Shown here: one piece after another, positions 48,626 through 63,270 of the stretch
How positions within the stretch are numbered: position 1 is the first letter of the stretch
How the letters are laid out: each line of letters opens with the position of its first letter
From: Rhizophagus irregularis
Lineage: Eukaryota
Length of the DNA stretch: 64,000 bases
Assembly: GCF_026210795.1 (NCBI RefSeq)
Contig: NC_089433.1
Span: 3,286,001-3,350,000, forward strand
Direction: 5' to 3'
Notes under the pieces: model-generated
What the model saw: only the letters and a program-made list of their open reading frames with translations
Told to the model about the DNA's origin: nothing
Database searches by the model: none
Position numbers and translations under genes: made by a program

Positions 48626-49232
48626 TGTAACGCCTAAGCCCGTGATAAATCACGTTGCCACCTTAGGTATTAACAAAATATCTCTTTATTAATAATATAA
48701 ATAAATACAATAATATGCTTGGTTTAATAACATTAAATAACTAATAAATAATTCATTATCGAAATTCGTCCAAGAATAATGTCCTTCTCAAAAGGTGATC
48801 TTCACGCCCTTTTATATTTGTTTTCGTGTAACCAAAAATTCATAATTTCGGTTCATGGATTTAAATTATCAAAGTATTTCCATTATTTCAAAGTATTTCC
48901 ATCATCTTAATTCTGTATCCATTTGATCATCGTGACCTCCTGAATTATGATTTATAATACTAACGTAATGATCAGCAAATTAGTCACCTGACACCTCAGA
49001 TCACTTGACTTCATTTAATTTAGTATCTTTCGGATCTTTATTTATCCTTAAATGTGACTGATAGTTTAATGTCATCTCGGACCAATTATCCTTGAATCAC
49101 CTGATCAATAGTTTAACGACTTTTCGGTCTAACTAAAAAAAATAAAAATAAACTAAAATTTTATATACTAAGATTAAATATAATACTGCGCCTCACAATT
49201 AATAAATTTACTATGTATACTACGGCATTACA
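48626..49232 (-). repeat. 3' LTR
   Basis: 607 bp; no differences seen by eye against 59155-59761. Confidence 0.95.
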
Positions 49233-49242
49233 ACTATCCCCC
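49233..49242 (-). other. Short polypurine tract
   Basis: GGGGGATAGT immediately before the 3' LTR on the element strand. Confidence 0.6.
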
Positions 49243-49337
49243 GCATGAAAATTTAATGCCCTCATTAAATTTATTCTAAGAATCGAACTCGTGTCTCGAA
49301 GTGGTAGGTGCGAATTATACCACTAAATCAAGCATGC
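49243..49337 (-). ncRNA. tRNA(Gly)-like sequence in the retrotransposon 3' UTR (degenerate)
   Basis: GCATGCT TG ATTTAGTGGTATAAT TCGCAC CT ACC AC TTCGAGAC ACGAG TTCGATT CTTAG: A-box/D-loop, Gly-type ACC anticodon position, B-box/T-loop. Stems are imperfect. Confidence 0.6.
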
Positions 49338-49554
49338 GTCATTACTTGACTTAGCTGCGTCCTGCGGCTGTTCCCGTGGTTTGTCATGTGTTCTTCTGAA
49401 TTTCACGGTTTTCTTGTACCGGATTTCACTTAGGTCTTTCTTTGGAATTTTCATTAATTCTCCCTATTTTTCCAAAATTATTTTTATGTCATGTGATTTT
49501 ATTTCACATGATTATAAATTATCTTTATTTTTCTAAGTCTATTGATGATGGTTA

Positions 49555-51336
49555 TCATTTACTCATCGGTGTATGGTAAGTCTTTAATAGTTCTCCATTT
49601 ACAGGTGTTTTCTTGATTACACCCTTAATATCTTTAATTTTGTAGGCTCCGTTTGGTAGTATTTCATGAATGTAAAATGGTCCCAACCATTTTGATTCCA
49701 ATTTTCCAGATAATTGTTGTGCTTTGGCCTTATCATAAAGTAATATTTTATCTCCAATTCCAAAGGTATGTTCTTTAATTATTTTTCTGTCATGATACTC
49801 TTTTTGTTTTATTTGAGATTTTAATATTTGTTCTTTGGCTTCATATCGGATTTTTGGTAATTCTTCTAATAATCCAACTATTCTATCACTTAGGTTGATT
49901 CCTTTGATATCTTCATCCATTATTGTCCGTACATTTCTTCCATATGTTAGATAAAATGGTCGAATTTTTGTTGAACTATGCTTTTTATTTCGGTAAGCAA
50001 ATAATATGGGTGCTATCCTTTGATCCCAATCATCTTTGGTTGATAATTTTGCTAATGCTTGACCTAATGTTCGGTTGAATCTTTCAACAAGTCCGTTTGT
50101 CTCTGGATGATAACTTGTAGAAAAATTCCATTTAATTTTGAATTTTTCCATTAATTCCTTAATCATTTCATTATTGAAATGACTTCCTCTATCACTCAAT
50201 ATTTTCATAGGACATCCATGTCTACAAATGATGTCTTCATAAATAAATTTTGATACTTCTTTGGCAGTTGCTTCTTTTACTGCTTTGGCTTCTGGCCATT
50301 TTGTAAAATAATCCATTGCTACTATGATGTATTTATTACCATTTGTTGTTGTGTTCAATGGTCCAACAAAGTCAATCCCGATTTGATACCATGGTTCTAC
50401 TACTTTAATTGGGTGTAATTCATTTTTCCCTTGTGGTTTTCCTCTTCTTTGACATTCATCACATGTCCTTACATATCTTTCAACATCATTCAGCATATTT
50501 TCCCAATAATATTTATCTTTCAAATTATCATAAGTACTTTTGATTCCCATATGTGCCAATAATTCATGACTGTGAGCTAAATATAGTGCTCCCATCTTTT
50601 CAAAATCTTCTATTATTCTGATGTTTTTACCATTTTTCTCAATATGCTTTTTACCATCAGTTACTCTGATGTTATCCTTAATCTCAACATTTTTAACCTC
50701 TATTGGTGGTTTATCTCCATCTAATTCTATTACTTTATTATATACTCTTTCCCAATCTGTGTCATTATTTGATATTTTAATATTAGCATATTTTTCTCCT
50801 TCGTAAATATCTTGACATTCTTTAAATGATTTCACCATCTCCATATATCTTTCTTCATCTAATAATGGGTATGATGTTTTATGTCCTTGATCCTTTTTCG
50901 AATATTCTCTACCTTTGTAATTTTCCCAACATTTTTCATTTTCTAAAAATATCACTATTGATTCATCAATTATCCTTTTGTTCCTAAATACTTCCTTTTC
51001 TAATAGGTGGTTCTCATATCTTGTTATGTATCCTCTGTCGAATGATGGTGTTTGTTGATAAAAGTACTCACTATAGGGACTTTTATCTAATATTAACCAA
51101 TCCTCATTATCATGTTCTTCCATTCTCCTGTTGATTTGTTTGACAACTTCCTTCCTGAATTCCCATTCTATACCTTTCTTTGGTATTTTATACTTATCAT
51201 TGTCCTCTCTTCTCCTTTTAAAGGTGTTAAACCTCACACTTTGTCCTACTTTTTCAAATTCTTTTATAAGTTTATTTACAATGAATGTTTTTCCAGTACC
51301 ATCAACTCCACATATGATTATTATTTTAGGTCCCAT
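49555..51336 (-). CDS. dNMP/thymidylate-kinase-like P-loop domain fused to Gypsy integrase
   Basis: aa 1-205: IIIICGVDGTGKT, ILDKSPYSEYFYQ, IVIFLE. Then HHCC zinc finger (AHSHELLAHMG..CDEC), DDE core (GIDFVGPL, SDRGSHF, NGLVERFNRTL) and GPF motif. Confidence 0.9.
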   Translation of the reverse strand: MGPKIIIICGVDGTGKTFIVNKLIKEFEKVGQSVRFNTFKRRREDNDKYKIPKKGIEWEFRKEVVKQINRRMEEHDNEDWLILDKSPYSEYFYQQTPSFDRGYITRYENHLLEKEVFRNKRIIDESIVIFLENEKCWENYKGREYSKKDQGHKTSYPLLDEERYMEMVKSFKECQDIYEGEKYANIKISNNDTDWERVYNKVIELDGDKPPIEVKNVEIKDNIRVTDGKKHIEKNGKNIRIIEDFEKMGALYLAHSHELLAHMGIKSTYDNLKDKYYWENMLNDVERYVRTCDECQRRGKPQGKNELHPIKVVEPWYQIGIDFVGPLNTTTNGNKYIIVAMDYFTKWPEAKAVKEATAKEVSKFIYEDIICRHGCPMKILSDRGSHFNNEMIKELMEKFKIKWNFSTSYHPETNGLVERFNRTLGQALAKLSTKDDWDQRIAPILFAYRNKKHSSTKIRPFYLTYGRNVRTIMDEDIKGINLSDRIVGLLEELPKIRYEAKEQILKSQIKQKEYHDRKIIKEHTFGIGDKILLYDKAKAQQLSGKLESKWLGPFYIHEILPNGAYKIKDIKGVIKKTPVNGELLKTYHTPMSK

Positions 51337-51602
51337 TTTTACATAATTCTGATAATTTTAGCCTGTTTATTTTACTTAATATCACCTCTATTTGTAATAT
51401 TTCCTCTTGGGTTTCCAAAATTAGTGGTCTTTCCTTACTATCCTCAAAATTTTCGGCTTTGTATTTATAGTTATAATTTATCCTGTTTAATTCCTTTGTT
51501 ATACCTTCTAAATTTTCGATTATATCCTTTATTTTTATGATTTGTATTTCTTACCACTTGTTCCATTTTTATTTTTGAAAAGTAACTCTTTTACCCATCT
51601 AT

Positions 51603-53082
51603 TTATATTATTCTTGATAAGGCATCTGCGTTTTTATTTTCTTTTCCTGGTCTATGGGTTATTTCAAAATCATACTGTTCCAATTCCATGACCCATCTTG
51701 ATCTCTTTCCTTTTGGTACTTTTGCAGTCATTAATCCCTTCAAAGCTGCATGGTCTGTTACTACCTCAAATTTTCTATTGATCAAGTATTTATGGAAGTG
51801 TTGTATTCCCCATACAATTGCATAACATTCTTGTTCGGTTATTGGCCATCTTTGTTCTGTCCTGTTTAAACTTTTACTGGCATATTCTATTACGTATTCT
51901 TGACCTTTATCATCTTTTTGAGCTAATACTGCCCCTAATCCTATTCCTGAAGCATCTGTAATTAATATAAATTTCCTTAACCAATCTGGTTGTCTTAACA
52001 CCGGTTCTTCGGTTAATTTCCTTTTTAATATTTCTAATGCTTCATGTTGTTTGATGCCCCATTCAAACTTTTCATCTTTTCTCAATAAAGATGTTATTGG
52101 TTTTACTATTTTTGAAAAATCTTTAATAAATTTTCTATAATACGTACATAACCCCAATATTGACCTTACACCTTTTATATTTATAGGTGCTGTTAATTTT
52201 TGTATCTTTTCAACCTTTCCTGGACTTGGTTTTAATCCATTTTTACCAACTACATGTCCTAAAAATTCTATTTCTGTTTTTCCAAATATACATTTCTTTA
52301 ATTTTAGTATTAAACTGGCTTCCTTTAATTTTTCTAACACTAACTTTATGTGTTTTAGGTGGTCTTCAAAATTTTCCGAATATATCATTATATCATCAAT
52401 GTATACTATCACAAATTCATTTAGGTACTCCTTTAATACTTTATCCATTAACCTTTGAAAACTTGCAAGCGCATTTGTTAACCCAAATGGCATGACATTA
52501 TATTCATATAATCCTGCTGAGCATATGAATGCTGTTTTCTCAATATCTTCCTCAGCCATTTCTATCTGATTAAACCCTGATGCTAAATCTAGACTGGTAA
52601 ACCATTTTCCTGAACTTATCCTTTCTAATTGTTCATCAATCCTTGGTAATGGATATGCATCTGTTATTGTAACTTTATTTAATTTTCTATAGTCGATGCA
52701 AAATCTATAATTTCCCGACTTTTTCCCTACTAAAGTCACTGGTGAAGACCATGGACTTCTAGATTCTCTAATTTTTCCCATTTTTAACATTTCTTCAACC
52801 TCTTTTCTGATGAATTTACCTTTTTCATCATTTTCTTTGTACCTCTTTTGGGCTATTAGTTCAGTACCCCCTTTTAATCTGATTTCATGTTTTACTAGGT
52901 TTGTCCTATTATATTTTTCACCATCGTACTCAAATATATCCTTATATTTTTCTACTAATACCTTTAATTTACCTTTTTGTTCATTGGTTATGTCCCCTAC
53001 TTTAAATTTTTCAGTAAATTTTTCATGGTCACTTTTGTGCTTCTTTATCGTCTCTTCAGTATCATTCTGACCAAGACTTATA
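51603..53082 (-). CDS. Reverse transcriptase + RNase H (pol segment)
   Basis: SPWSSP, RFCIDYRKLN, LDLASGFNQI, MPFGL, YIDDI, ITDASG, VVTDH, ADALSR. The frame stays open upstream of ATG 52790 to ~53082. Confidence 0.95.
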
Positions 53083-54162
53083 CTTTAAAATTTTCATCTT
53101 CCTGACCTTCATGGTCATCTTCATATATGTTATACAATTCATCCTGGTATAATTCTTCTAATATTTCCTCTTCATCAAATGTTTCTTCAAACCCTTTAAT
53201 GGTCCTTTGTGTGTATTTTACTGGTATATCCATAGTTTCATCATTCATTCTAATTATTATTGTTTTATCTGTGTAATCTATATTTGCTTTGAATATATCT
53301 AATACTCCATTTCCTAACACAATTTCGTTTTTTCCTGAATCAATTACTTCAACCTTAATGGGTATTTCCTTATCCCCAAATTGTATGTATATTGTCGTGG
53401 TACCCCTAGATGTAAACATGGGTATCGAAACTCCTAAGAGCATTTCCGAATGTTTCGGGTTTCGGTATATACGAATCGAAACTCAACCCATAACCTAAAC
53501 TTCTACCGAAACTCGAAACAACTTCCGATATTCCGAAACCTATCCCGATATCCCGAAACCAGCATTACCCAATTAAATTGCTTAAACAACTGTGCCATAC
53601 GTCATATTGATGAAATCACGTGCTCAATAATCATCAAGAAATTCATAATACCCGACGCTATGTGAGGATTGAGGAATATAATGGAGTGAACAAATTCTAC
53701 CCTAATAGTTATATAGTTAATTTGGATTTAATGTTAGGAATAATTTAATAGTGAACAAACTATTAGAAATTGAACTTGATACCTTTATTTAAGATTTACT
53801 GTAAGGAAAACTAATAAAAATTTTGGGCATATTTCGGTTTCGGGTTGGGATTCGGGAATCGGAAAAATATATGCATTTCCGAAACTCTATTTCGTATATA
53901 CCGAAACCGATAGAGTTTCGGGAAGTTTCGGTTTCGTTACCCATGTTTACCTAGATGTTAATTTATCCTCATTTATCATCACGCATCTTACTGTACTTGG
54001 TTCCTCAATTTTTAGGTCCATTTCATCCATTATCTGACTAGTTATTACATTTACTGCTGCTCCTGTATCAAACATTACGTCCTTTAATTCTTGGTTTATT
54101 ATTAATTTACCCCTTAATGCAGTTAAGTGTTCTGCTTCAATGTTATTCATTGATTCTTGTAG
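53078..54162 (-). pseudogene. Aspartic protease, interrupted by a hAT MITE
   Basis: VMFDTGAAVNVI..KLTSR|GTTTI..IVLGNGVL is restored in frame by removing the MITE and one TSD copy. Confidence 0.9.
53413..53949. mobile_element. hAT-like MITE (537 bp)
   Basis: TIR TAAACATGGGTAnCGAAAC, 8-bp TSD CCTAGATG, CCGAAA subterminal repeats. Confidence 0.9.
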
Positions 54163-57100
54163 TCAATCTGTTTGTGGATACCTTCTCATTCCTTCATAAT
54201 ATATTTTTCTTTGCTCCGGACTCGTGTTTATAATTTGTGCAAAGGTTGTATTTGCTCTGGTATTTTTCAGATCCTCCACTACGTTATATCCTGGTATATT
54301 TCTCAGAAATGCACTTGTCCTATGGATACCTTCAACACGTTCATTTTTACATTGTTTTGCATAGTGACCTCTTTGTCCACAATTTCCGCATGTATTATTA
54401 TTTCTTCTTACTTCTTGTGCCTTCCTCAGACTTTCATCAGTGAATCCTCTTTTTGGTAATGCTGCTGCCCTTTCCTCTTGGCTTGCATATTTATTATTCC
54501 TTCTTCGTATTTGTTCTTGGTCAATTTCCATATCTATATCTCGATTACTTGACCTATTTTTTATGTTACTTCTCGTCTGTCTTTCACCGGTATAAAAATC
54601 TTGATCAACATGATTAAATGTTACATCATTATCTTGATAATACGGGTCGTCATAACTATATCCTTGATCATAATTATCCTGATAATCCTGACTATCATAA
54701 TCATATTGGTCATATTGGTCATTATAATTATCATATTCCACTACATTGAATCTTCGATTATTGTTTTGGTGGTTTGGTGGTCTGTTATAGTTATTTGGTC
54801 TTCCATTATAGTTATTTGATCTTCTATTATAATTTTGATTATTTGGTCTTCCATAGTTTCTTTGACCATTATTTACCCTACATTCATTTGCATAATGTCC
54901 TGGTTGTTTACAATTGTAACATGCTCGAGGTGGTGGTCCTTGTCTATTATTATTGTTTGGTGGTCTCTTTTGCCCTCCAAGTTGATTTACTAGTTTTACC
55001 TCTAATTTTTTAAACATGTCGGCAAGGTCATCCTCATAATTTTTCTCCAATGGTTTTTCAAATATATTCTTTGGCTTGTCATCTTGTATATCGATTCCTT
55101 TTCTTTGGGTACTAACTGATATACCACGTGTCTTTCTTATTAATTCATTAGTAGCTTCCTCCTCTCTTCTTGCTGTATTCACTGCATCATTTAAATTTGC
55201 TGGGTTTTGTCTTCTGACTTGATATCCCAATGTTGGTGTTAATCCTTCGATATAATTATCCACTTGTAATTCATCATCTAATGCATGGCCTCTGGTAGCT
55301 ATCCTTAATATTTGTCTAAACCTTATCGTATATGCCTCAACATTTTCATTTACTCCTTGTGTTATTTTCCTTAATTCTAACATTTTCCTTTTTCTAACAT
55401 CCTCTCTGGTAAATCTTTGTTTAACTCTATGTTTCAAATCATTATCATCATCATTGTCTGCCCAATTTACTAAATGTCCATTATTTGCTTCCTTCTTTTC
55501 ATTATACCATTGTGCTGCTGCACCTTTCAAACAGGTAGCTGCCATTGCTGCTTGTCTAGCTCCATTTACTCCTGCTGCTTTTCCTATGGCAGTAAATGCT
55601 GTTTCAAATTGTCTTACCCAATCATTAACATCTTCTTCTTCTTTTCCATAAAAGTGTGGCAAACTAATTATTCCTCCAGCTGCGTTTCCTGCATCCTCAA
55701 TTGCATTTGCTAATGGGTTGGCTGCGATTAATCCAGCCCAATTACCTCCTATATCATGTCCTGTTGTTGCTAGTAAAGCCGCTCTAACATCTTCCCTTAC
55801 TTCAGCTCTTGTTGCTCCCATAATTATTGGTACTATTGGTGGGATTGGTGGTATCGGTGGTGTTAAAGGTGTTTCAAATAAATTTTCTATATTATAATCA
55901 GATATTTCACTTTTATCCTCAGAATTTGATTCTGAACTTTCACTTGAGTCAAAACCGGGTCTATTTATAATGTTTTCTTCATAAGGTTCTTCAAAATTTT
56001 CATTGCTATCAGTATCATTTGGATTTAAAATTTCTCCATTTTTTTCAGATCCATCTGATTCTTTTTCAGATCCATCAGATTTTTCGTTATCAGATTCATT
56101 TCCACTGTTTTCACTATCCTCAATTCCAGCTTGCTGTTTTAGAAATTTATCTAATATTCGCCTTAAATTTTTCTCCATTTCATTTTTATTTCCTTGGAAT
56201 ATTTCAATAAATTCTTGATCCAATATTTCTCCATCAGTATATCCCATACTGATTAACCTCAATAACTCTCCATTAGTTATTTCTATTTTATTATCATCAC
56301 ATATTTGTTTTAATCTTTTGACCCTGATATCAATTTCATTCTCGTCATTCTCACAATCCCTACACTTGGTTTTTCCTTCGTCAAATTTATTGTTCATCCA
56401 TCTTATTCCACATTCATTACAAAATGTGGTATTTCCATTTATCCATTCATATAATTTTGTCCTTAATTCTTTGTCATTCGTATCCATTTCCTGGAAATAT
56501 TTTTCCATAAATTCCGTTGTTAATATCATACTATTGCTTATCCTGAATTTTCTTATTCTCTCTATTTCTGACACATTTAATTCGTATCCTAGTTTTTCTA
56601 AGTCATCCTTTAATTTTAATAATTCTTTTTGTTCACAATTTTTACATTGCCCAATGTCTGTTATCATATCAGGTAACTTTCTATTCCTACAATTTCCACA
56701 TATTAATGTTTCTTTTGTTAACCATTCATTTATTTCATCTTTTAATTTTTCATCACTTAGTCTCATTAATTCGAAAAATGTACCTAAAAAGTCTTCTGTT
56801 AATATCAATTCTATTCTTATCCTTAGGTCCCACATTCTTTGTATATCCTTGTCAGTGAACCTTCCACCCATTTCTTCAATTTTTCTTTTTAATGATTCCA
56901 CTGTCCATTCGACATCATCCTCTATTTTTACTTCATAATGTATACTACCATCACTGTCCTCTAGTTCATAACTTTCAGGACTATCACTTTCTGGGTCCTC
57001 AGGTTCCCTTGTAAATTGTTTGGTGTCAATAAATCTTTGTCTTACTTTCTGTATCAATCTCTTCCATGCATCCTTTCCTTCTTGAGTGTCTGCCTCACAT

Positions 57101-57750
57101 CTATTCTGATGTTCTATCTGGAGTAACAATTCAATTACCTTTTCTCCCCTCACCAGATCTTCTGTTTCTTCATATAATAAATCCCTGAATAACTTTATTG
57201 CTAACTTCTTAACATGTATTGCTTTCATTTCATTTTCCAATATCGTGTTGTACCAATCCCAAAACTTTTGAAATCTATTTTCAACATCCCAATCTTCTAA
57301 AATGTATCCATGTTCCATTATTTCTGGACATCCAATTAACCGATCAAATACTTCATTTTCTAAGTCTCCTTCAATACAATCCCTTACAATTACTACAATT
57401 ATTATCCTTAAACCTTTTTCTTTCATTTTTGGTTGTTGTCTGTACCTTATTGATTCAATTATTCTATCTACTATATTCCTACATTTTCCTTTATGTATTG
57501 TGTCTTCCCTTTCTCTATTGTCCATACTTAATAAATTCAATAATTCTTTATGTGTTACATTATTGTACATTAGTATTGTATCCTCAAATTTAAATAAAGC
57601 ATCCCAAAATTTCTTGAATGCTGTTGATACTTCTCTTTCTATTGGATTACATATTTCACATGCTAAGCATTCCTCTGGTTCTATCACTCCTAGGTCATGT
57701 TCTTGTTTATGGTTTATATATCCAGCGTTCCAAACATGGTACCATTCCAT
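54163..57750 (-). CDS. Gag with a long N-terminal extension (1195 aa)
   Basis: Capsid-like FYGKEEEDVNDWVRQFE..LKGAAAQWY..QGVNENVEAYTIRF; two CCHC knuckles, CYNCKQPGHYANEC and CGNCGQRGHYAKQC. Confidence 0.92.
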   Translation of the reverse strand: MEWYHVWNAGYINHKQEHDLGVIEPEECLACEICNPIEREVSTAFKKFWDALFKFEDTILMYNNVTHKELLNLLSMDNREREDTIHKGKCRNIVDRIIESIRYRQQPKMKEKGLRIIIVVIVRDCIEGDLENEVFDRLIGCPEIMEHGYILEDWDVENRFQKFWDWYNTILENEMKAIHVKKLAIKLFRDLLYEETEDLVRGEKVIELLLQIEHQNRCEADTQEGKDAWKRLIQKVRQRFIDTKQFTREPEDPESDSPESYELEDSDGSIHYEVKIEDDVEWTVESLKRKIEEMGGRFTDKDIQRMWDLRIRIELILTEDFLGTFFELMRLSDEKLKDEINEWLTKETLICGNCRNRKLPDMITDIGQCKNCEQKELLKLKDDLEKLGYELNVSEIERIRKFRISNSMILTTEFMEKYFQEMDTNDKELRTKLYEWINGNTTFCNECGIRWMNNKFDEGKTKCRDCENDENEIDIRVKRLKQICDDNKIEITNGELLRLISMGYTDGEILDQEFIEIFQGNKNEMEKNLRRILDKFLKQQAGIEDSENSGNESDNEKSDGSEKESDGSEKNGEILNPNDTDSNENFEEPYEENIINRPGFDSSESSESNSEDKSEISDYNIENLFETPLTPPIPPIPPIVPIIMGATRAEVREDVRAALLATTGHDIGGNWAGLIAANPLANAIEDAGNAAGGIISLPHFYGKEEEDVNDWVRQFETAFTAIGKAAGVNGARQAAMAATCLKGAAAQWYNEKKEANNGHLVNWADNDDDNDLKHRVKQRFTREDVRKRKMLELRKITQGVNENVEAYTIRFRQILRIATRGHALDDELQVDNYIEGLTPTLGYQVRRQNPANLNDAVNTARREEEATNELIRKTRGISVSTQRKGIDIQDDKPKNIFEKPLEKNYEDDLADMFKKLEVKLVNQLGGQKRPPNNNNRQGPPPRACYNCKQPGHYANECRVNNGQRNYGRPNNQNYNRRSNNYNGRPNNYNRPPNHQNNNRRFNVVEYDNYNDQYDQYDYDSQDYQDNYDQGYSYDDPYYQDNDVTFNHVDQDFYTGERQTRSNIKNRSSNRDIDMEIDQEQIRRRNNKYASQEERAAALPKRGFTDESLRKAQEVRRNNNTCGNCGQRGHYAKQCKNERVEGIHRTSAFLRNIPGYNVVEDLKNTRANTTFAQIINTSPEQRKIYYEGMRRYPQTD

Positions 57751-58273
57751 TTTTAATAAAATTCTCTAAAAATTTTCACATCTTTTACTTTTTATCCTTC
57801 TTTTATATTTTATTTGACCTATACTGGGCTTGCCTTTACCTCATTTGTTCATTACTGAGTATGGTAGTTTACAGGTTTGTACAAATAAATTTATATTCCA
57901 TAAAATTTTCCAACCTAAGGTTGAAGTGTGAATCCATATTTGATTTGTCCGATTATTTGTTGTATTTCCAAGACTGATGTATCTTTCCTCGGTGTCAACA
58001 ATTCATTTAATAAGTGGGAGATTCAAATCTCCCTCTTTCATATGCTCCTACTACGCCTCTAATTCTATTATATCCTAAAATTTACTGTGCTTTGATAATC
58101 TTTAATTAATAATCTCGACACCTGTATTGACATTTTATATAATTTTACTACGCTACAAAATCTCTTATCATCTATATCCTTATTAATTTTTAATAACTTT
58201 CCTTGAATATATTTGTCCAGCAAACATTATTTTAATTTTTGTTAACGTTAATCATGATTTTTCTTGGGTACCC

Positions 58274-58565
58274 TCACACAGAATTGTTTTTGGAAGTTCA
58301 CACAGAACTATTCTCAATTGATCACACAGAATACCTCAATTGAGTTCACACAGAAAAAGCTCACACAGAACTATTCTCAATTGATCACACAGAAAACCTC
58401 AATTGAGTTCACACAGAATTATTCTCAATTGATCACACAGAAAACCTCAATTGAGTTCACACAGAATTATTCTCAATTGATCACACAGAAAACCTCAATT
58501 GAGTTCACACAGAATTATTCTCAATTGATCACACAGAAAACCTCAATTGAGTTCACACAGAATTA
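58274..58565. repeat. 48-bp tandem repeat (two related ~24-bp halves) in the retrotransposon 5' leader
   Basis: AATTATTCTCAATTGATCACACAGAAAACCTCAATTGAGTTCACACAG, about 5 copies plus partial ones. Confidence 0.92.
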
Positions 58566-59134
58566 CCCTACCATCGTATTTATAGTGTCGGTTTTTGGGT
58601 ACACTTTTTATCCTTAACTTAACCTCAATTATTTATAAAAATTATTTTTAATCCTTAATTCATGGAACTTATTTACAATATTCTATTAAAACCCCTTCTA
58701 ACTTGATTAGCCTCGCATTTCCCTTGATAATCAATTACTACCATACATATTTGGTTCATATGTATGAAAATTATTATAATAATAATTTTTCATTGACTTA
58801 TCAGCCGGTGGTCAAGTTAGATCAAAAATTTAATTTTTAACATTATCTCTTTATACATTTATGGTCATACTCACCCAAATTAATGCCTTTTACCTTGGTA
58901 ACCATTATTTTCACGTATCCTTTAAAATATTTAACTTTATTTTATTAAAATTTAACGTTAATACGCCTTAAATTCTTTTTTAACCAAGACTTAGAACTTT
59001 TAATTTTATAATTCCTTAACTTCGTCGATCCTTTATTTGTAACTTCTAATGATCACGTGGGGGTGATCATTTTCTTTTCTCAGAGATCCTGTACTTATAA
59101 CCTGTAGTGATCATGTGAGGATGATCACTTTCCT

Positions 59135-59152
59135 TTCTCGGAGCATGCACCA
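59135..59152 (-). promoter_or_regulatory. Primer-binding site (probably tRNA-Gly)
   Basis: TGGTGCATGCTCCGAGAA two bases inside the 5' LTR, complementary to a tRNA 3' end TTCTCGGAGCATGCACCA. Confidence 0.85.
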
Positions 59153-59154
59153 CT

Positions 59155-59761
59155 TGTAACGCCTAAGCCCGTGATAAATCACGTTGCCACCTTAGGTATT
59201 AACAAAATATCTCTTTATTAATAATATAAATAAATACAATAATATGCTTGGTTTAATAACATTAAATAACTAATAAATAATTCATTATCGAAATTCGTCC
59301 AAGAATAATGTCCTTCTCAAAAGGTGATCTTCACGCCCTTTTATATTTGTTTTCGTGTAACCAAAAATTCATAATTTCGGTTCATGGATTTAAATTATCA
59401 AAGTATTTCCATTATTTCAAAGTATTTCCATCATCTTAATTCTGTATCCATTTGATCATCGTGACCTCCTGAATTATGATTTATAATACTAACGTAATGA
59501 TCAGCAAATTAGTCACCTGACACCTCAGATCACTTGACTTCATTTAATTTAGTATCTTTCGGATCTTTATTTATCCTTAAATGTGACTGATAGTTTAATG
59601 TCATCTCGGACCAATTATCCTTGAATCACCTGATCAATAGTTTAACGACTTTTCGGTCTAACTAAAAAAAATAAAAATAAACTAAAATTTTATATACTAA
59701 GATTAAATATAATACTGCGCCTCACAATTAATAAATTTACTATGTATACTACGGCATTACA
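59155..59761 (-). repeat. 5' LTR
   Basis: 607-bp copy of 48626-49232. Confidence 0.95.
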
Positions 59762-62567: not shown

Positions 62568-63270
62568 TAGGGTTGGATCGGTCCGGTCCAGTCCGGTCCG
62601 GTCCCAAAAAGACCGGTCTTTCAACCTGGACCGGACCGGACTGGGACCGGACCGATTTAAATTTAAAGAAATGATTTTTAGACCTCTAAATTATGCTAAA
62701 ACATTAAAGAACGTTGTGAAACGTTTTTTAATATGTAATTTAACAAATAAAAAACGTTTCGCAACGTTTTTTAATTATTTTAATAGAAAACGTTGCGAAA
62801 ACGTTTTTTATTAATAAGTTCATAAAAAAAAACGTTTTTCGCAAACGTTTTTAATTATTTTAACAAACAACGTTGCGAAAACGTTTTTATTAAGTAATTT
62901 ACGTTTTGCAACGTTTTTTATTAAGCAATTTAATAAAAAAAAACGTTTTCATACGTTTTTTTAATTATTTTATTAATAGGAAACGTTGCAAAAACGTTTT
63001 TTATTAATAATTTCACGAAAAAAAAGTTTCGCACGTTTTTTTTAATAAAAAACATTGCGAAAACGTTAAAAACTGAACTGACAATCGGTTTTGGCAAAAA
63101 CCGTGCCCTAGAAGTAGATGAGCACAAAAATTGGCTCATTTTTATTGGATATTAATAATATGGGATCGGTCCCCGGTCCGGACCGGTCCTCAGATCTCGG
63201 ACCGAAGACCGTGAAGACCGGTCCCAAGACCGACGCAGGACCGGTCTTTGCTAGGACCGATCCAACCCTA
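62568..63270. mobile_element. hAT-like MITE (703 bp)
   Basis: 17-bp perfect TIR TAGGGTTGGATCGGTCC, 8-bp TSD GTAAAAAA, GGACC subterminal repeats and internal AAACGTT repeats. Confidence 0.92.

Follow-up and report, generated by a model that had tools for sequence, protein, structure and literature searches.

The Ty3/Gypsy retrotransposons of a fungal clade include members that carry, in sense orientation, a conserved core of the primer tRNA that is predicted from their own PBS. The core is exemplified by an element of Rhizophagus irregularis within the window (the whole 64,000-nt stretch of contig NC_089433.1 that was analyzed, positions 3,286,001 to 3,350,000), where it forms part of a longer and decayed copy of a Gly-like tRNA in the 3' UTR (Table 1).

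The host of this copy is an 11.1-kb element on the minus strand, flanked by LTRs that have TG...CA ends, show 0 differences from one another, and are bordered on their outer sides by a 4-bp TSD (ACAC). The element is an intact, young LTR retrotransposon and is Ty3/Gypsy by all features tested (LTRs, TSD, PBS, PPT and the gag-RT-RNase H-integrase order). It shares with Ty3/Gypsy (Metaviridae) the LTRs, PBS, PPT, gag, RT-RNase H followed by integrase, and TSD, but differs by the addition of the primer-tRNA copy and of a kinase-like domain before the integrase. Along its full length, the kinase-integrase ORF shares 97% identity with the R. irregularis protein P0001. Despite the identical LTRs, separate ORFs encode the gag, protease-like, RT and integrase regions (51357-51603, 53078-53084 and 53482-54163); this split may be natural, and the integrases of relatives are also annotated as stand-alone proteins. 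The long 5' leader includes an array of ~48-bp tandem repeats (58247-58597).

Table 1. Features of the element and its primer-tRNA copy (window positions; all on the minus strand).
Feature	Position	Strand	Basis or remark
3' LTR, 607 bp	48626..49232	-	identical to 5' LTR; without sense core copy
Polypurine tract (PPT)	49233..49242	-	sequence; clade comparison
Pre-PPT hairpin, 10-bp stem, AGGG loop	49249..49272	-	present across the family; separate from the tRNA copy
Degraded sense copy of the Gly-like primer tRNA, covering ~nt 1-62	49276..49337	-	sequence; PBS fit
B-box consensus (T loop)	49280..49288	-	sequence
Core conserved in relatives: nt 43-59 of the tRNA, with variable loop, 5' strand of the T stem and T loop	49282..49297	-	relatives
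Perfect A-box consensus	49320..49330	-	pattern scan; among 11 copies only in the window copy
Upstream arm that repeats nt 4-16 of the copy imperfectly in inverted orientation	49343..49355	-	predicted pairing, probabilities 0.52-1.0
ORF: P-loop (thymidylate-kinase-like) domain, then integrase	49555..51357	-	domain and protein searches
ORF: RT and RNase H	51603..53084	-	domain search
Gag ORF (capsid, zinc knuckles)	54163..57765	-	domain search
PBS, 18 nt, 2 nt behind 5' LTR	59135..59152	-	recurs in relatives
5' LTR, 607 bp	59155..59761	-	LTR comparison

The PBS predicts a tRNA that starts with GCATGCT, has a CCGAG T-stem strand and reads TT-C at nt 59-61. At the spacing of a tRNA, the window copy agrees with this prediction at 7/7 positions of the acceptor start, 4/5 of the T stem (the mismatch is at nt 49) and 3/3 of nt 59-61. 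A preliminary description of this DNA had noted a 3' UTR fragment that resembles the PBS-implied primer tRNA; its letters, places and 7/7 and 4/5 matches are confirmed, and the agreement at nt 59-61 is added. The expectation by chance, given the composition, is 3.8e-8 in the element and 4e-7 in the window, as computed for a post-hoc pattern and with the perfect A box not counted. Retained in the copy are the acceptor 5' strand, the D arm, a damaged anticodon arm, the variable loop and the T arm; the acceptor 3' strand and discriminator are absent, and similarity ends at about nt 62. When joined by script to the PBS complement, the fragment yields a cloverleaf at an ARAGORN threshold of 94, but not 96. 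Among 127,842 control joints on both strands, 14 gave any call at a threshold of 90, and only two of these (49283/49282) ended in the PBS-derived CCA. The PBS is considered a real primer site because it recurs, exactly or nearly, in 8/80 related loci of the best 80 of 517 (L003, L004, L005, L010, L015, L021, L036 and L054). The feature is real, non-chance and tied to the element's own primer, and by its sequence the fragment is derived from the PBS-predicted tRNA.

The native fragment is not a tRNA gene. ARAGORN finds 0 tRNA genes in the window, and its threshold has to be lowered to 70% for any call in the fragment region. Rfam gives no tRNA match at E<=10 in the 1.5 kb or the 121 nt around the fragment, and a custom covariance model of 10 viral-contig tRNAs, run with filters off, does not match it; thus, neither source provides a covariance-model score. 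The pairing probabilities of the D and T stems are <=0.01, which disagrees with the earlier suggestion of a tRNA mimic closed by CATGC. Of the proposal that a primer-tRNA gene was captured, the derivation from the PBS-predicted tRNA stands, while the gene status is contradicted by ARAGORN, Rfam and the custom model alike. Elsewhere in the window, a GC-rich repetitive stretch (63180-63260, minus strand) scores 15 bits with the custom model and draws weak ARAGORN calls; it is probably a repeat and not a tRNA.

The anticodon loop of the window copy reads ACC (C35-C36 present). Eukaryotes are not known to have a tRNA-Gly-ACC. Compared by eye to human Gly-GCC as displayed in PMC8001983, the first 31 nt of the copy are identical to the 5' half at 24/31 positions and the PBS-inferred 3' end of the tRNA at 18/22. 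Based on the 24/31 match and the ACC loop, the source is likely a tRNA-Gly(GCC), with a G-to-A change in the copy. A host tRNA that fits the PBS was sought in viral contigs (0 matches; a further search gave 12 matches, none a tRNA) and in prokaryote genomes (4 matches, none a tRNA), and was not found in the supplementary material covered from two AM-fungal small-RNA papers. Because of this, nt 43-48 of the primer are represented by the element copies, and its m1A58 status by two yeasts.

The relatives were obtained by one metagenome scan and are the best 80 of 517 confirmed loci. With search patterns seeded on the window sequence, the core is found in 9/81 sequences (the window plus these 80 loci) as 11 copies, i.e., 8/80 loci keep it (L003, L004, L010, L013, L015, L021, L022 and L036), so that the conservation among element copies proposed earlier as a check is observed for nt 43-59. 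In a leave-one-element-out matrix, the core scores 24-34 in the 9 carriers versus <=10.2 in the other 72 sequences, and near-matches number 9 compared to 0 in 20 local shuffles. Each of the 11 copies is in sense orientation, with no antisense score >18.1 among the 81 sequences. The extent of the copies varies: L003 also keeps tRNA nt 2-12, with the middle deleted, the other relatives keep the core only, and the 3' acceptor strand is in no copy of the window or the relatives. ARAGORN finds 0 tRNA genes in the best 80 of 517 loci and noise only when relaxed with introns allowed; the custom tRNA model leaves the copies unmatched in the 21 of the 80 loci that were searched. A complete tRNA, for which a comparison of family members had been suggested earlier, is found in 0/80. 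An 18-mer form of the core is regarded as a real T-arm sequence, since the closing stem strand follows in 14/14 exact viral-contig matches (13 perfect) and, for 9/14, ARAGORN at its standard or a relaxed threshold calls an overlapping tRNA. The viral contigs were also searched for relatives of the integrase, and none was found.

The core occupies two types of site: (i) U5, 99-176 nt before the PBS, in L003, L004, L021, L010 and L036, and likewise inside the LTR in L013; and (ii) 58-128 nt before the 3' LTR in the window, L015 and L022, the latter two loci having two core copies each, in tandem. The sequence flanking the core is shared by L003, L004 and L013. All carriers belong to one 35-row clade (SH-aLRT 100 in a quick tree), in which 7/8 members with a visible PBS carry the core. 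The exception, L005, has the same PBS and a whole LTR yet no copy, only a 3-nt PBS extension. A copy is also absent from L017, L019 and L062 of the clade, in which 950-2015 nt are seen after the integrase and the PBS is not seen; most other loci are too short for presence of the core to be judged. In a second PBS class, 0/6 loci carry the core or a T-arm copy matching the tRNA that their own PBS predicts. Counted by families, the contrast between PBS classes is 6/7 versus 0/5 (Fisher p 0.015), a contrast that is confounded with descent because all carriers share one clade.

The PBS itself varies among carriers. In L015 (4956-4973), it has three changes in the acceptor part and the same T-stem part, possibly due to a second isodecoder, and in L003 it has a 2-nt insertion. 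The locus L054, of another clade, has the same PBS and bears primer nt 45-59 in antisense orientation 27 nt behind it (L054 2974-2992), a layout that looks like a split/bipartite PBS or a primer over-extension sequence.

The core is under apparent constraint. Among 10 copies (L021 was dropped as a twin of L004), 74/80 letters are kept at nt 44-52, on the 5' side of the B box, and 84/90 at the B box (nt 53-61). Conservation falls beyond nt 59-62, with the PBS edge at nt 59. The 16-nt core is ~92% conserved among carriers whose integrases are 56-65% identical and whose flanking sequences barely align. By these counts, the conserved segment is wider than the B box on the 5' side.

The explanation that we favor, with somewhat less than even confidence, is that the fragment reproduces the primer tRNA in the same strand sense, with most of the PBS-binding end missing, and that its core, as minus-strand DNA, base-pairs with the primer next to the PBS to provide a stop for plus-strand synthesis. 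A sense copy is unable to pair with the primer as RNA; thus, pairing could occur only through minus-strand DNA. The minus-strand copy of the core would bind primer nt 43-59, adjacent to the PBS-bound end, and the resulting RNA:DNA hybrid on the primer would either obstruct RT or become a target for RNase H cleavage. Plus-strand strong-stop DNA would then end near nt 58-59 and the primer would be removed. The U5 and pre-3' LTR sites would, by the standard cycle, both be copied into minus-strand DNA before plus-strand strong-stop synthesis reaches the tRNA. The core:tRNA duplexes are predicted at -23 to -30 kcal/mol (RNA parameters, with a proxy for the tRNA). The hybrid would substitute for the m1A58 stop, which is absent from tRNA-Gly in yeasts. 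As described in PMC13191261, m1A58 halts retroviral plus-strand synthesis at 18 nt, and an unmodified primer tRNA is copied to its 5' end. In the mim-tRNAseq tables of PMC8062790, the position-58 rows include no Gly tRNA for Saccharomyces cerevisiae and no Gly-GCC for Schizosaccharomyces pombe, with values of 0.91-0.97 at this position for fly and human Gly-GCC. The S. cerevisiae rows for this position likewise include no Ala, Asp, Glu or His tRNA; a review gives 33/55 yeast isodecoders as modified at m1A58 (PMC10275265).

Several observations support pairing between the core and the primer: the core sits only in U5 or before the 3' LTR and is always sense; the antisense copy of L054 targets the same tRNA segment by a second arrangement; 7/8 PBS-visible clade members carry the core versus 0/6 of the second class; and yeast tRNA-Gly is without an m1A58 signal, although this applies to two yeasts and may not hold for Glomeromycota. 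Pairing is weakened by L005, which has the same PBS and lacks a copy, by the similarly copy-free L017, L019 and L062, and by the T-loop CpG (56-57), which is intact in 10/10 copies compared to loss of the CpG at 50-51 in 2, a pattern that suits protein recognition. In addition, an exact stop is perhaps not needed, since in Ty3 the first plus strand to run into the tRNA is described as unproductive, and what is transferred comes from a later round free of the tRNA (PMC5371799). The copy was probably acquired when RT, during minus-strand synthesis, switched onto the free 5' part of a primer tRNA, as this would explain why the copy is sense, begins at nt 1 and stops at the PBS edge. The window copy would then be a fresher and longer capture, with selection on the core only. 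It is possible, though on the unlikely side, that in a Glomeromycota Gypsy clade primed by an m1A58-less tRNA-Gly a self-encoded guide replaced the host modification. This guide, a sense copy of primer nt 43-59, would be turned into an antisense DNA oligo by reverse transcription and would direct primer trimming by the RNase H that the element encodes. It would act only at the DNA-intermediate stage, and would move between U5 and the pre-PPT site or be refreshed by recapture from the primer.

An unlikely alternative, which is nonetheless to be taken seriously, is that the core is a B box used in DNA, i.e., a TFIIIC site that forms a boundary or insulator by the LTR, with the window copy being a full type-2 Pol III promoter from which a short RNA would run through the PPT into U3. 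TFIIIC sites with a B box only exist. The perfect A and B boxes of the window copy lie 42 nt apart and are followed by a first T5 run 140 nt downstream; the full B-box consensus is kept in 6/10 copies; and the invariant T-loop CpG, the tandem duplications of L015 and L022, and the stop of conservation near nt 61-62, where the B box ends, all agree with this possibility. By contrast, the A box is in 1/11 copies (background 51/2857 90-nt windows), so that the type-2 layout of the Pol III promoter suggested earlier fits the window copy only, and B-box positions are broken in 4/10 copies (T55 changed in 2/10, C61 in 2/10). Moreover, nt 44-52, which are not known to act in promoters, are as conserved as the B box. 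The uniform sense orientation and the antisense counterpart behind the PBS of L054 also argue against a TFIIIC site. Pairing along the whole segment fits better than a promoter because nt 44-52 are conserved like the B box and the A box is mostly gone. A precedent for tRNA-derived promoters in LTRs is reported for Helenus (PMC10886601).

The same RT switching that is proposed for capture could, in a reading we consider quite unlikely, account for the copies as a neutral by-product, with RT moving occasionally from the PBS edge onto the free part of the primer to leave functionless sense copies that reach variably far in the 5' direction and then decay. Compatible with this are the common 3' edge (nt 59-62), the differing 5' extents (nt 1 in the window, nt 2-12 plus core in L003, core in others), the inverted arm directly upstream of the window copy, which resembles an RT fold-back scar, and the several clade members without a copy. 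However, neutral decay is at odds with a ~92% conserved core at such integrase divergence, with the 6 loci of the other PBS class that have no such copy, and with the shared flanks of L003, L004 and L013, which point to inheritance and not to fresh capture. An insertion of a tRNA-Gly pseudogene or tRNA-headed SINE into the 3' UTR, with the primer match coincidental, is very improbable. SINE families are reported in R. irregularis (PMC11075540), and the copy begins exactly at nt 1 and has A and B boxes, but a target-site duplication or tail is not evident at the copy, a second copy is absent from elsewhere in the 64-kb window, and the matched tRNA is the one that the PBS predicts, with recurrence of the match in 8 related loci (best 80 of 517). 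Scarcely credible is a remnant of a complete, element-encoded tRNA that once served as a self-supplied primer, an idea raised in the preliminary description. It would fit that the copy is nearly full-length, comes from the right tRNA and has promoter boxes, and loss of the 3' end could be due to the pairing that a complete sense copy would undergo with the PBS of its own element. Yet the 3' acceptor strand needed for priming is in no copy, a complete tRNA is in 0/80 relatives (best 80 of 517), and the anticodon arm is damaged.

Of the known systems, the Helenus TRIMs (Kojima 2024) are described as non-autonomous elements of 311-1263 bp that keep A and B boxes in the LTR and whose tRNA-like part, by the author's check, is not complementary to the PBS (PMC10886601). 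Similarly to Helenus, the window element is an LTR element with tRNA-derived sequence that does not fold as a functional tRNA, and in the relatives L003, L004, L010, L013, L021 and L036 the copy is inside the LTR. Unlike Helenus as so described, the window element is an 11.1-kb autonomous Gypsy with gag, RT and integrase, its copy is internal and absent from its own LTR, and the copied tRNA is the PBS-predicted one. As to the boxes, the window copy has both A and B, and the A box is in 1/11 copies of the group. Membership in Helenus/TRIMp3 is ruled out by size, autonomy and the internal copy.

The bipartite 5'-3' PBS of Ty3 and the extended PBS of Ty1 resemble the present case in having a second element sequence that is related to the primer T arm and lies at a distance from the PBS or close to the 3' end; these extensions are, however, antisense in RNA and pair at initiation, whereas the window copy is sense and could pair only as minus-strand DNA (PMC5371799). 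A bipartite or extended PBS is ruled out for the core by the sense orientation of 11/11 copies, and the antisense layout is met only by L054. In HIV-1, a tRNA-Lys3-like sequence of U3-R (motif 9) can base-pair as RNA with the tRNA and promotes minus-strand transfer. This motif and the window copy are both primer-tRNA-like and near the genome 3' end, but their polarity is opposite. The primer over-extension sequence of lentiviruses and spumaviruses likewise concerns plus-strand synthesis past primer nt 58; as described, it lies directly behind the PBS, is antisense to the tRNA and accepts over-run (PMC13191261), while the core is remote, of opposite polarity, and would prevent over-run.

A sense primer copy in an autonomous element was not found in the literature searched, a scope that excludes most subscription journals and Repbase reports; such a copy is not described in the portions covered of PMC6317226, PMC6088434, PMC7912444 and PMC11075540, or of the supplements of PMC6399891 and PMC7082362. 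The primer-tRNA contacts found described for LTR elements are all antisense in RNA. A conserved sense copy, if a true cis-element, would be of a different kind, acting in the DNA intermediate, and would explain how elements primed by m1A58-less tRNAs end plus-strand strong-stop DNA. If it is a B box, an autonomous Gypsy would have its own TFIIIC site; if neutral, the copies would be a record of RT switching onto its own primer. The copy also illustrates a SINE-independent route by which tRNA sequence can enter LTR elements, a point of relevance to how Helenus-type elements arose.

The hairpin between the copy and the PPT is a separate feature. Of the 35 clade members surveyed, 8 are without a visible PPT, and 21/27 of the remainder have a stem of at least 5 bp around a GG-containing loop. 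The stems differ in sequence among members, and the loops are of the GGA or AGGA type; thus conserved, the hairpin is likely a cis-element in its own right. Its presence across the clade, with or without the tRNA copy, rules out a tRNA part or terminator and detaches it from the feature with which it had originally been grouped. The CATGC:GCATG closing pair proposed with it has a predicted probability of 0.91-0.97 in 114 nt and 0.00 in a 460-nt context, i.e., the helix is seen solely in the excised fragment. In context, nt 4-16 of the copy are instead predicted to pair in RNA with the upstream arm, covering the A box. Pairing of the copy with the element's own PBS was also rejected, being predicted as weak (-10.5 versus -34.8 kcal/mol for the primer end).

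Some of these related elements encode additional domains. Fused to the N-terminus of the window integrase is a P-loop domain (50700-51357, minus strand) that resembles thymidylate kinase. Models of dTMP kinase match this domain at E 6e-5, below cut-off, and PF02223 is above its cut-off in the relative P0003; most other relatives are ~395-aa integrases without the P-loop domain. By these matches, the domain resembles a nucleotide-metabolism cargo in a Gypsy element. In L077 (1945-2889, plus strand), the integrase is directly followed by an ORF of 314 aa, which encodes a NUDIX domain (E 1.4e-10) and may represent a second nucleotide-pool enzyme among these related elements. L055 (5455-5874, plus strand) has a 139-aa ORF of no Pfam family between integrase and PPT; similar DNA is in L018, L024, L057, L061, L067 and L073, and the loci with this type of ORF are mostly of the second PBS class.
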